Source: Rhodospirillales bacterium (GTDB lineage Bacteria > Vulcanimicrobiota > Vulcanimicrobiia > Vulcanimicrobiales > Vulcanimicrobiaceae). Taken from it: DNA of 44,288 bases. The notes beneath the pieces are model-generated. The model was not told the DNA's origin. It did no database searches and saw only the letters and a list, made by a program, of their open reading frames with translations. Below are positions 1 through 6,479 of this stretch, piece by piece; position 1 is the stretch's first letter, and each line of letters opens with the position of its first letter. Made by a program: the position numbers and the translations under genes. The DNA lies in assembly GCA_025359485.1 (NCBI GenBank), contig JANYGA010000291.1, forward strand, positions 1 to 44,288, given 5' to 3'.

Positions 1-768
1 GCCCAGGCGCGCCGTGCTCTCAAAGAGCGTGCGGTGAACTCGGTAGGCAAGCGAACGACTGTAGGCCGCGAGCGACGCGCGCACGACGACGGCTTCGAAT
101 TCGTTGAACGATCCCTCCGAAGCGAGATCGTGTCGCGCGAAAAGAATGCCGCGCGCGAGTTCGGGATCGAAGCGAGCTCCATCGGCGCGCCGCTCGATGT
201 AGCGCGAGAGATCGCTCGCCCCACCCGCCGCCTCGTATCGATGTTCGATGCCCGCGAGAGCGTCGGAGCGGAGCACGCCGGACTTGGCATCCGCGAGGCC
301 GCTATCGGTCGCTTCGGTCGCATAGATTCGCGCACGCGAAAGCAACTTCGCTTCGGCGAGCAAGATCGCAACGCAGTACGCATCGAACGCATTGCCCGCG
401 ACCCAGATCCGGAAATACGGATAGGTTCGTAAGCGCGGAAACACGTCGCTGACGAGCGTTGCATACATGCTCGTATCGCGAAAGGGCACGAACGGCGATG
501 TCGAGAGCGCGCAGACGAACGCTTCGAGCGCGGCGGCATCGTGCACGACGCGATCGAGCAGGCCCGTGATCGTGTGCGTCGCCTCTGCGCGCACGCGTTC
601 GGTGATGCGACGCTTGAGCAATGTCGGCGCGTACTCGCGGAAATCGTATCCCGAAAGCCGCACGACGCCGTCGAGTAGCAGCGCGATCTCGATATCGGCA
701 ACGGACGTGCGCGCGTCGGTCGCTTCGGGCGACGCACGGATCGGATCGGCCGAGTCGTGCACGATCAC
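1..768 (-). CDS. CheR-type methyltransferase-like protein; the C-terminal end runs off the left edge of the window
   Basis: This frame is absent from the supplied ORF track because it has no stop codon inside the window. My translation of the minus strand from 768 down to 1 is uninterrupted: [171 protein letters not shown].. It is collinear with CheR landmarks: the N-terminal 'Y.F..Y....L.RRI..R' helix region, 'T.FFR', 'R.WSAxxSTGEEPYS', 'I.ATDI', 'F..HNL' and 'FD.I.CRNVLIYF'. The GTG at 766-768 overlaps the TGA (765-767) of the upstream kinase as GTGA. Confidence 0.6.
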
Positions 769-3700: not shown

Positions 3701-6479
3701 GCACCTTGGCCTGGCCGCCGAGTTTGCCCTCGAAGCCGACTTCGCGCGCGACGGTCGTGACCTGATCGGCGAAAGTGCCGAGCGTATCGATCATGCCGTT
3801 GATGGTGTCGGCGAGTTCGGCGATCTCACCCTTGGCTTCGAGTGAGAGTTTGCGCTTGAGGTCGCCGTTGGCCACGCCCGTGACGACGCCCGCGATGCCG
3901 CGAACCTGCTCGGTGAGATTACCCGCCATGCCGTTGACGGAGTCGGTGAGGTCTTTCCACGTTCCGGCGACACCGGGCACCGTCGCCTGACCGCCGAGCT
4001 TGCCTTCGGAGCCGACTTCGCGCGCGACGCGCGTCACTTCCGATGCGAAACCATTTAACTGGTCGACCATCGTATTGATCGTCTCTTTGAGTTCGAGAAT
4101 CTCGCCTTCGACCGTGACCGTAATCTTTTTCGAGAGGTCGCCGTTGGCGACGGCGGTCGTGACCTTCGCGATGTTGCGGACTTGCGAGGTCAAATTACCG
4201 GCCATGAAGTTCACGGAGTCGGTGAGGTCTTTCCACGTACCGGCGACGCCTTGCACGCGCGCCTGACCGCCGAGCCGGCCTTCCGTACCGACTTCGCGTG
4301 CGACGCGCGTTACCTCGAACGCGAAGGAATTGAGCTGGTCGACCATGACGTTGATCGTCTCTTTGAGTTCGAGGATCTCGCCGCGAACGTCGACCGTGAT
4401 CTTCTTCGAGAGGTCGCCGTTCGCGACGGCGGTCGTGACTTCGGCGATATTACGAACTTGACTCGTTAAGTTTCCGGCCATCGAGTTGACGGAGTCGGTA
4501 AGGTCTTTCCACGTTCCGGCGACGCCGCGGACCTCGGCCTGACCGCCGAGCTTGCCCTCCGTACCGACTTCGCGGGCGACGCGCGTCACTTCCGATGCGA
4601 AGGCGTTGAGCTGGTCGACCATGACGTTGATCGTGTCTTTAAGGTCGAGAATCTCGCCCTTGACGTCGACCGTGATCTTCTTCGAGAGATCGCCGTTTGC
4701 GACCGCGGTCGTCACGTCGGCGATATTTCGGACCTGCGAGGTGAGATTCGAACCCATCGAATTGACGGAGTCGGTGAGGTCTTTCCACGTGCCCGCGACG
4801 CCCGGCACGAATGCCTGACCGCCGAGTTTGCCTTCGGTACCGACCTCTCGCGCGACGCGCGTCACTTCCGATGCGAAACCATTTAACTGGTCGACCATCG
4901 TATTGATCGTGTTCTTGAGTTGCGCGATCTCGCCGCGCACGTCGACGGTGATCTTCTTCGAGAGATCGCCTTGCGCGACGGCCGTCGTCACCTCGGCGAT
5001 ATTGCGCACTTGCGACGTGAGATTACCCGCCATCAAATTGACGCTCTCGGTGAGGTCGCGCCACGTGCCCGCGACGCCTTCGACGCGCGCCTGGCCGCCG
5101 AGCTTGCCTTCGGAGCCGACTTCGCGCGCGACGCGGGTGACTTCGCCGGCAAATGCGTTGAGCTGATCGACCATCGTGTTGATCGTGCCTTTGAGTTCGA
5201 GAATTTCGCCACGCGCGTCGACGGAGATCGTGCGCGAGAGGTCGCCGTTTGCGACGGCGGTCGTAACTTCGGCGATGTTACGAACCTGCGAGGTAAGATT
5301 CGAGGCCATCGAATTGACGGAGTCCGTAAGGTCTTTCCACGTGCCGCCGACGCCGCGCACCTCCGCCTGACCGCCGAGTTTGCCTTCCGTGCCGACCTCG
5401 CGTGCGACGCGCGTGACTTCCGATGCGAATCCGTTTAATTGGTCGACCATCGTGTTGATGGTCTCTTTGAGTTCGAGGATCTCGCCGCGCACGTCGACGG
5501 TAATCTTTTTCGAGAGGTCGCCGTTGGCGACGGCGGTCGTCACTTCGGCGATGTTGCGCACTTGCGACGTGAGATTACCGGCCATGAAGTTGACGGAATC
5601 GGTGAGGTCTTTCCACGTTCCGGCGACGCCGCGGACCTCCGCCTGTCCGCCGAGCTTGCCCTCGGAGCCGACTTCGCGCGCGACGCGCGTGACTTCCGAT
5701 GCGAAACCATTTAACTGGTCGACCATCGTATTGATGGTGTCTTTGAGGAGTAAAATTTCGCCCTTCGCGTCGACGGTAATCTTCTTCGAGAAGTCTCCAT
5801 TTGCGACGGCGGTCGTCACTTCGGCGGTGTTACGCACCTGCGACGTGAGGTTACCCGCCATCGAGTTGACGGAGTCGGTAAGGTCCTTCCACGTGCCCGC
5901 AACACCGCGCACCGAGGCTTGACCGCCGAGTTTGCCTTCGGAACCGACCTCGCGTGCGACACGTGTGACTTCGAACGCGAACGAATTGAGCTGATCGACC
6001 ATCGCGTTGATGGTCTGAGACGCCCGGAGAAACTCGCCTTTGAGCGGGCGCCCTTCGACATCGAGGACCATCTGTTGTGAGAGATCGCCGCGAGCGACGC
6101 TGCCGAGCACGCGGGACGTCTCGGCAATCGGGTGCGTGAGATCGTCGATGAGCGTATTGACAGCTTTCACATGCGCGCCCCACGCGCCGACCCGCGGGTA
6201 GAGCTCCGCGCGTTCCCCGATGCGACCCTCGCGGCCGACGACCGATGACACGCGCTGAATGTCTTCTAAAAGCTCCGAGTTTCGTTCGACGACGTCGTTG
6301 AACGCCTCAGCGAGTTCCGCATCGACACCGCGGAGGTGATCCGTCCCGATTCGGATCGTAAAATCACCCTTCGCCACGGACCGCAACGCCGACAAAAGCT
6401 GTCGACGATTCGCGTCGCCCCCGCGTTTGCCGCCGAACGGCTCCGTCACCATCGTTGCCATCTGGATCGATCCCTCCAT
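765..6479 (-). CDS. Soluble hybrid sensor histidine kinase: poly-HAMP array, GAF, coiled coil, HisKA, HATPase_c and three receiver domains
   Basis: The ORF is 1904 aa with no evident TM segment or signal peptide. About 1000 aa are HAMP-type repeats. A GAF-like segment follows '[39 protein letters not shown]'. Then comes a coiled coil ('[52 protein letters not shown]') and the H-box '[17 protein letters not shown]'. The ATP-lid boxes are '[12 protein letters not shown]', 'VTDTGIGI' and '[14 protein letters not shown]'. The three receivers have acceptor contexts '[12 protein letters not shown]', '[12 protein letters not shown]' and '[12 protein letters not shown]'. The start is ambiguous among ATGs at 6479, 6461 and 6452; a GGAGGGA lies inside the first codons. 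Confidence 0.95.
3492..6185 (-). repeat. In-frame tandem repeat with a 276-bp (92-aa) period that encodes paired HAMP units
   Basis: The anchor string gtc(t/c/g)(t/c)(t/g)cca (the TWKD / LWKD / TWRD codons on the minus strand) recurs at 3675, 3951, 4227, 4503, 4779, 5055, 5331, 5607 and 5883, at exactly 276-bp spacing. The protein unit is '[92 protein letters not shown]'. There are nine such units plus a diverged first unit (aa 99-194) and a HAMP-like N-terminal segment. Confidence 0.95.

Follow-up and report, generated by a model that had tools for sequence, protein, structure and literature searches.

A clade of kinase-coupled CheR-like proteins with a decayed cofactor pocket in Vulcanimicrobiota, candidate non-catalytic subunits of hybrid histidine kinases

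The subject of this study is a pair of overlapping genes, for a hybrid histidine kinase and a CheR-like protein, at the left end of a 44,288 nt stretch of DNA (contig JANYGA010000291.1 of assembly GCA_025359485.1, positions 1-44,288 of the forward strand), referred to here as the window. It comes from a soil bacterium whose closest named relatives are Vulcanimicrobiaceae, a family of Vulcanimicrobiota (a phylum known too as Eremiobacterota or WPS-2). Of the two genes, both on the minus strand, the first (765..6479) encodes a soluble, AskA-like poly-HAMP hybrid histidine kinase of 1904 amino acids, identified from its open reading frame (ORF), Pfam domains and a match in the PDB. The second (1..768), assigned from its translation and Pfam, belongs to the CheR family; it starts with the GTG at 768 and runs off the left edge, with the first 256 of its 289 codons inside the window. 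Positions 765-768 are TCAC on the plus strand and thus read GTGA in the sense of the two genes, so that the stop codon of the kinase (TGA, 767..765) overlaps the start codon of the CheR-like gene (GTG, 768..766), an arrangement pointed out in the initial annotation and indicative of translational coupling. Overlaps of four nucleotides are common in operons and it is the conservation of this one that makes it informative: the junction is identical in six contigs of a family-level group (L001, L091, L089, L090, L002 and L004), and independent gene calls also place the CheR-like start at the GTGA. Sequencing runs were compared over positions 1-1600. Two soil runs that bear the label 'METAGENOMIC RNA-Seq' each have a contig over positions 1-879, and hence across the junction; that of one run extends a further 894 bases beyond the window start. 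These contigs, which are strandless and come from runs of uncertain library type, give weak support to co-transcription of the two genes rather than to the separate transcripts considered initially.

The complete CheR-like protein (P0001, 289 amino acids) was recovered from a short public contig, L001, where it is identical to the 256 residues encoded in the window; the two nucleotide sequences differ by one synonymous base. The frame is therefore uninterrupted beyond the window edge. This leftward extension, proposed at the outset, came through the CheR-like protein (L001, with the syntenic contigs L089 and L091), an exact look-up of the kinase protein having matched no contig. With a cut-off of 27 bits, both Pfam families of CheR matched the frame, CheR_N with 35.7 bits and CheR with 39.8 bits. 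The all-helical CheR_N domain comprises residues 27-77 (538..690, minus strand) and includes GYDFREYAP and the invariant R53/R54; in an alignment to the Salmonella CheR structure 1AF7, R54 falls on Arg53. The NCBIfam model for CheR, PRK10611, gave 21.2 bits against a cut-off of 435, but this model does not separate the states described below, since P0073, with canonical motifs, also falls short of it (94.8 bits). An AlphaFold2 (AF2) model of the protein has a mean pLDDT of 93.2, and its best Foldseek matches are CheR structures, 5FTW (TM 0.72/0.81) followed by 1BC5 and 1AF7. The two-domain fold of CheR, a helical N-terminal domain and a Rossmann methyltransferase domain with a β-subdomain, is retained.

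The cofactor pocket within this fold is non-standard. Motif I, the loop for S-adenosylmethionine (AdoMet), lies at residues 122-133 (370..405, minus strand), where canonical relatives read WVAGCSTGEEVYSL; here two residues are deleted and S-T-G-E-E is lost. Where the solved CheRs share (A/G)-(A/C)-S-(T/S)-G-(E/Q)-E the window protein has AG--NAFD, and in the AF2 model the loop from the strand at 119-124 to the helix at 129-139 is only 4 residues long. The motif that follows β4, at residues 229-237 (58..84, minus strand), reads VRASLAAYS in place of the canonical CRNVMIYFD. The Arg is all that VRASLAAY keeps of C-R-N-V-x-I-Y-F, with Cys, Asn, Ile and Tyr among the losses. The initial annotation had given both of these strings exactly, and its suspicion of a diverged pocket is borne out by the alignment to 1AF7, in which the equivalents of E128/E129, N212, N231 and Y235 of Salmonella CheR are replaced. 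The Tyr of CRNVxIYF corresponds to Salmonella Tyr235, a residue taken to have a catalytic role. Arg53, Arg98, Asp154 and Asn212 are likewise taken here to have the roles that Djordjevic and Stock, in 1997/1998, and Shiomi, in 2002, reportedly assigned to residues of CheR. Two of the pocket residues are retained: Arg97 in PFRD (the FxR motif, corresponding to Arg98) and, as a conservative change, Glu152 in YATE (corresponding to Asp154).

To place these changes, the 120 best CheR-like homologues were aligned and scored for the state of their motifs. Fifty-six are canonical and carry MFRD, AGCSTGEEVYS, YATDIN and CRNVMIYF(D/N), motifs also found in the solved CheRs of B. subtilis (5FTW), P. aeruginosa (CheR1, 5Y4R/5XLY) and Salmonella (1AF7), of which 5FTW and 1AF7 were solved with S-adenosylhomocysteine. 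The other 64, referred to here as decayed, are without CRNVxIYF, and intermediate stages can be seen among them. Some keep the AdoMet loop (PACSTGEDVYS, VGCGTGEETYT), many have the two-residue deletion with GSGDDAY, and the group of the window reads G-N-A-(A/F)-D-A-Y and VR(T/A)SLA(S/A)Y. The Pfam score of the CheR domain drops stepwise over such a series, from 138/134 bits in canonical proteins to 110 (P0062), 76 (P0026), 44 (P0013) and 40 (P0001), while that of CheR_N stays at 36-54 bits. Of P0062, P0026, P0013 and P0001, the first alone has a motif I that the generic methyltransferase models of Pfam still recognise. In all, 39 positions conserved in the canonical proteins are lost in the decayed group, concentrated in motif I, at the residue after ATD and in CRNVxIYF. 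Only 8 positions are newly conserved and none of these is in the pocket. A simple, midpoint-rooted neighbour-joining tree groups the 56 canonical proteins as one clade, with the root between them and all of the decayed ones, an arrangement that cannot prove the decayed group monophyletic. The decayed proteins are essentially confined to Vulcanimicrobiota. The only decayed locus outside the phylum, L017, is in a metagenome-assembled genome labelled Armatimonadota and has the motifs PGCATGADAFA and ARGAAGMFT; its origin may lie in mis-binning, in transfer or in decay that happened independently.

The decayed proteins have remained under purifying selection. Their reading frames are intact in all 64 homologues, at ~270-316 amino acids, and the ratio of nonsynonymous to synonymous substitution rates (dN/dS) comes to 0.16 when the window lineage is compared with its 88% relative. 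Within the decayed clade the ratio is 0.09-0.29 as against 0.03-0.18 among canonical genes, from which the constraint is clearly purifying, if somewhat relaxed. Forty-eight positions are at least 90% conserved in both groups, among them GYDFREY, R53/R54, RIYAT, Y178, AGG, G182-G183 and SFNEF. A subfamily signature, consisting of a 12-residue patch together with SFNEF, is invariant or nearly so in canonical and decayed proteins alike and is present in the window protein. It is scarcely credible, then, that the gene is a functionless pseudogene in the course of decay: the loss of catalytic motifs and of partner genes (see below) is what such a gene might display, but the intact frames in 64/64 homologues, the dN/dS values, the confidently predicted fold and the conserved coupling of stop and start codons all speak against it.

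The wider setting of the gene was examined in ~90 loci, comprising 80 from a scan with one genome per species and further loci fetched by exact protein look-up. In the window and in at least 80 of the loci the CheR gene lies directly downstream of a hybrid kinase of the GAF-HisKA-HATPase-REC type, a position conserved across at least 8 phyla. Canonical loci typically continue with a CheB gene that lacks a REC domain, found directly downstream in 57 of 65 and with a response-regulator/kinase usually next to it. In the 24 decayed loci of the set, and in L089 and L091 (26 in all), CheB is missing. A hidden Markov model built from 58 CheB sequences, run in six frames over the decayed loci and the whole window, gave no match. 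Whether a CheB-like gene might follow the CheR-like gene, a question left by the truncation at the window edge, can thus be answered: none does in the syntenic relatives, and none is found in the decayed loci or the window. The canonical loci without CheB are mostly from Firmicutes, with the order REC-SpoIIE, 4HB_MCP-GAF kinase, canonical CheR and kinase/regulator. In this Firmicutes module (L068, L069, L074, L084 and L088, from Paenibacillus and Saccharibacillus, and L079) the kinase has a membrane 4HB_MCP sensor, a GAF domain and three REC domains. The pairing of a CheR that has no methylesterase with a kinase that has a chemoreceptor-type sensor domain is puzzling.

Could the protein nevertheless be an active methyltransferase with a remodelled pocket, acting on the kinase or on another target? 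Methylation would then be irreversible or constitutive, which would make CheB dispensable, and the Firmicutes modules do show that a canonical CheR can occur without CheB. The intact fold, the retention of Arg97 and Glu152, the purifying selection and the CSTGED loop of basal members of the clade fit such an enzyme as well. We regard it as unlikely all the same, because the loop that wraps AdoMet is two residues shorter, the equivalents of E128/E129, N212, N231 and Y235 are gone, and the generic methyltransferase models that recognise motif I in P0062 fail to do so in P0001, P0013 and P0026. Moreover, the lost pocket positions vary among close relatives, which suggests relaxed constraint rather than a new optimum.

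No chemoreceptor accompanies the gene pair, in agreement with the initial annotation. Among all the large ORFs of the 44-kb window Pfam found no signalling domain of a methyl-accepting chemotaxis protein (MCP), and CheA and CheW are likewise absent from the window. When the loci were searched with a chemoreceptor probe modelled on E. coli Tsr, the single match was in L056, 9 kb from the CheR gene, and doubles as a positive control. An MCP gene just downstream, beyond the window edge, is not what the relatives point to. Those at 72-88% identity (L089, L091 and L002-L004) share the gene order of the window, namely MASE4-GGDEF, SufBD, diacylglycerol kinase, a divergent SpoIIE-HATPase_c_2 gene, the poly-HAMP kinase and the CheR-like gene, and beyond this come a small gene for an EthD protein, a convergent one for threonyl-tRNA synthetase, or both, with no CheB or chemoreceptor gene. 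The EthD-domain gene is on the same strand as the CheR-like gene and 27-60 nt downstream of it (L001 1078-1181, L091 1101-1547); it is absent in L089, and it may be a third operon member in some relatives. A conventional chemotaxis function, directed at chemoreceptors from other parts of the genome and with only an incidental place beside the kinase, would be in keeping with the Pfam family and with public records that call its relatives 'chemotaxis protein CheR'. Such a role seems very unlikely given the kinase-adjacent position in at least 8 phyla, the decayed motifs and the scarcity of MCPs near the loci, as well as the report that the homologue in P. putida has no chemotaxis role (PMC4951495).

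By Pfam the kinase contains HAMP and HAMP_2 (10 stretches each), GAF, HisKA, HATPase_c and three REC domains, all of the following coordinates being on the minus strand. The poly-HAMP array occupies residues ~30-992 (3504..6392) and is made up of nine 92-residue di-HAMP repeats of exact period, which span residues 165-992, preceded by more diverged units at the N-terminus. A query made of two consecutive repeats matched the HAMP array of M. xanthus AskA (PDB 9TRK) with E = 2.8e-120. The array is followed by a GAF domain (Pfam GAF_2, residues 1020-1156, 3012..3422), an E/Q-rich coiled coil that leads to the H-box (2778..3011), the catalytic core of HisKA and HATPase_c (2076..2777, with the H-box SHELRTP at 2733-2753), three receiver domains (Pfam Response_reg, three stretches within 792..1934) and a C-terminal tail, RVWLNVRS (768..791). 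As no 19-residue segment of the kinase exceeds a Kyte-Doolittle value of 1.56, no membrane helix is predicted. Upstream, the region at 6480..6685 separates the operon from the divergent SpoIIE gene and, judging from the positions of the ORFs, is the presumed promoter region.

If the kinase were the substrate of the CheR subfamily, methyl-accepting sites might be expected in it. The initial observation that the kinase has HAMP units but no MCP methylation helix or signalling domain holds: Pfam found no MCPsignal domain, and the consensus for MCP methylation, [ASTG][ASTG]xx[EQ][EQ]xx[ASTG][ASTG], had 0 matches in the window kinase and in 56 related CheR-linked kinases. Two isolated matches occur among 46 downstream kinases of canonical loci. 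It follows that if the canonical CheRs methylate the kinase they would do so at sites that are not of the MCP type.

Two features of the kinase differ between canonical and decayed loci. In an alignment of 57 kinases a 28-residue, E/Q-rich segment of four heptads is absent from the coiled coil in 16 of 16 kinases of decayed loci and present in nearly all of those from canonical loci, the exceptions being L053, which has a canonical CheR and CheB but a short coil, and L079. The window kinase has the short form, with the junction near 2916-2948. The coil is built from a repeated 28-residue unit, present as one copy in decayed loci and two in most canonical ones, and it is longer still in Gaiellales and Firmicutes; as the segment is one copy of this unit we give the difference little weight. 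The 28-residue deletion was considered as the loss of a methyl-acceptor region, but this is weak because the copy number varies and L053 is short-coiled in spite of its canonical locus. The second feature is the C-terminus. The kinase ends with W-L-Y in 63 of 63 canonical-linked cases, in a tail of the form RVWLY(R/K/Q) that sometimes carries a short acidic extension, and in 0 of 24 decayed-linked ones, in which the Tyr is replaced by Asn or Ser. None of 45 other ORFs with a terminal REC domain has a tail of the WLY type. The tail is possibly a docking element for CheR or CheB, in loose analogy with the NWETF pentapeptide of chemoreceptors. Since they fall on the same single branch as the decay of CheR, the changes in the coil and the tail count as one event.

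Both possibilities put forward in the initial annotation, that the kinase is the target of methylation-based adaptation and that the CheR-like protein is a non-catalytic adaptor, can be considered in this light. The first fares less well for the window itself but is plausible for the canonical modules, in which CheR is intact, CheB is present and no MCP lies nearby. We can suggest, tentatively, that in ancestral kinase-CheR-CheB modules (cfc and AskA-like) the kinase itself was methyl-accepting and that Vulcanimicrobiota froze CheR as a permanent allosteric subunit. Candidate docking or acceptor elements would be the RVWLY tail at the C-terminus and the additional E/Q-rich segment of four heptads. 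Were this so, methylation-based adaptation would operate in a two-component kinase without any chemoreceptor, and Vulcanimicrobiota would be a natural experiment in which the loss of catalysis and of CheB went together with that of the tail's Tyr and of the coil segment.

For the window the second possibility is favoured by the loss of the pocket, the absence of CheB, the purifying selection and the coupling to the kinase. With the pocket decayed and the partner genes gone, the CheR-like protein has probably survived as a pseudo-methyltransferase, kept as a kinase-bound, non-catalytic adaptor or regulatory subunit. The ancestor would have been a widespread four-gene module of hybrid kinase, CheR, REC-less CheB and response-regulator/kinase, as exemplified by cfcABCD. 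The Vulcanimicrobiota lineage would have lost CheB and the second kinase, and its CheR paralogue would have lost first CRNVxIYF and then, stepwise, the AdoMet-binding loop. What has been kept is the CheR fold, together with the N-terminal helical domain and its equivalent of Arg53, the subfamily patches and the coupling to the kinase. The protein, presumably no longer able to bind AdoMet or to methylate, would bind its ancestral target, the kinase, in fixed stoichiometry and so may influence kinase output; without methylation, the system would have no reversible methylation-based adaptation.

Several points weigh against this interpretation. In class I methyltransferases a great diversity of motif I sequences is tolerated and, with Arg97 and Glu152 kept, some residual binding of AdoMet is possible. 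Early-branching decayed members (L019, L022, L027, L031, L039 and P0062) keep a CSTGED loop. Loss of CheB by itself does not force CheR to decay, as the Firmicutes relatives without CheB have canonical CheRs. Since all the decayed proteins lie on one side of the tree, the loss of CheB, the decay of the pocket and the changes in the kinase may amount to one coincident event. Lastly, it is from gene coupling and retained surfaces, and from these only, that binding to the kinase would be deduced.

On the other side of the intergenic region, at 6686..8149 on the plus strand, lies the divergent gene for a PP2C phosphatase (SpoIIE) fused to an RsbW-like HATPase_c_2 kinase domain, identified by Pfam and NCBIfam. 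The same neighbour is kept in L002, L004, L007, L009, L011, L014, L015, L022, L027 and L089. The N-terminus of the SpoIIE protein, considered as a REC phosphoacceptor, was rejected as such: Pfam finds no REC domain there, and BLASTP against a REC-SpoIIE relative aligns the phosphatase part only. It looks like a short GAF-like remnant. The neighbour raises the question of whether the CheR fold has been re-used beyond the kinase as a sensor or scaffold, either with another ligand in the pocket or as a bridge to SpoIIE/RsbW-like and STAS components. A divergent SpoIIE-HATPase_c_2 gene occurs in 11 of ~13 informative decayed loci, with STAS genes nearby, and in P. putida the kinase CfcA interacts functionally with HsbR/HsbA (bioRxiv 10.1101/2024.11.25.625174). 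We nevertheless consider this quite improbable, for the tight coupling is to the kinase and not to the SpoIIE gene, the kept residues are those shared with canonical kinase-linked CheRs, and the pocket residues are variable, with none of the 8 newly conserved positions among them.

A role as a kinase-bound subunit can be compared with what is known of related systems. The cfcABCDE cluster of P. putida encodes the CHASE3/GAF hybrid kinase CfcA, the CheR-type CfcB, the CheB-type CfcC and the response regulator/kinase CfcD, and CfcA activates the diguanylate cyclase CfcR (PMC4951495, PMC6849547). The CheR/CheB pair of this cluster has no role in chemotaxis (PMC4951495). The window resembles the cluster, as described in those papers, in that a GAF-HisKA-HATPase-REC kinase is followed by a CheR-family gene and no chemoreceptor is present. 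It differs in lacking CheB and a CfcD-like kinase, in its decayed CheR motifs and in its sensor, which is a soluble poly-HAMP array whereas that of CfcA is a membrane CHASE3 domain. The functional interaction of CfcA with HsbR/HsbA, which are partner-switch proteins of the PP2C/STAS type (bioRxiv 10.1101/2024.11.25.625174), is echoed by the SpoIIE-RsbW-like and STAS genes beside the decayed modules, and its control of a diguanylate cyclase may be set against the MASE4-GGDEF genes of the window. The latter (10942-12390 and 12481-13932, plus strand) are tandem paralogous genes for diguanylate cyclases, 4.5 kb from the kinase, and a gene of this type is syntenic in L089.

Soluble poly-HAMP kinases are known from crystal structures of M. 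xanthus AskA (9TRK/9TRJ) and are related to the fungal group III kinases (Coles et al. 2026, PMC13446029). The window kinase is like AskA/AskB in being soluble and in having a long array of 92-residue di-HAMP repeats followed by GAF, DHp/CA and receivers. That description of the family mentions neither CheR nor CheB (PMC13446029), and both the link to CheR/CheB and the decayed variant of CheR fall outside it. With the chemotaxis CheRs (1AF7/1BC5, 5FTW, 5Y4R) the window protein shares the two-domain fold, the Pfam families, the Arg of FxR and the acidic residue after strand 2, but its motif I is shortened and unrecognisable, its CRNVxIYF is lost, no CheB, CheA, CheW or MCP lies nearby and the gene is coupled to a kinase. 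Pseudo-receiver domains offer a parallel (PMC12632262), in which the fold of a signalling enzyme is also kept under selection after the loss of catalytic residues, presumably for binding or allostery, though the fold and the chemistry are different.

A full-text literature search found no description of a pseudo-CheR or a catalytically decayed CheR, and this would be the first candidate for a CheR pseudoenzyme in the literature searched. The AskA or poly-HAMP family and the type of cluster represented by cfcABCDE were known beforehand, and to these the decay of CheR is added here as a clade-wide, stepwise trait. For kinase-CheR-CheB clusters without chemoreceptors, which span many phyla, what is known of the CheR/CheB pair is that it has no part in chemotaxis in P. 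putida. The Vulcanimicrobiota lineage appears to have dropped the methylation chemistry while keeping CheR coupled to the kinase, and its main value is as a means of comparison for these modules. It argues that this CheR subfamily has its partner in the kinase rather than in some distant receptor and, as features of the kinase to target in tractable canonical systems, it singles out the WLY tail at the C-terminus and the variable coiled coil rich in E/Q. For the poly-HAMP kinases, a family whose structure was described only in 2026 and whose fungal relatives are fungicide targets, the CheR-like protein is in addition a partner not reported before.

Elsewhere in the window, a 1530-amino-acid ORF at 24277-28869 (plus strand) contains HisKA, HATPase_c, REC, PAS, GAF, SpoIIE (PP2C) and RsbW-like HATPase_c_2 domains. 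It is thus a two-component kinase fused to a complete partner-switch phosphatase and kinase, a second link between two-component and partner-switch signalling in this genome. At 15091-16218 (minus strand) a PurN-like formyltransferase domain is fused to an N-terminal GNAT acetyltransferase. Within a purine cluster at 30-44 kb (PurF, PurD, GuaA, PurQ, PurL and PurC) there are two genes, a duplication in a bacterium, with DUF1246/DUF1297 (35975-37285 and 38240-39304, minus strand), the ATP-grasp domains of the PurP type that are best known from archaea.

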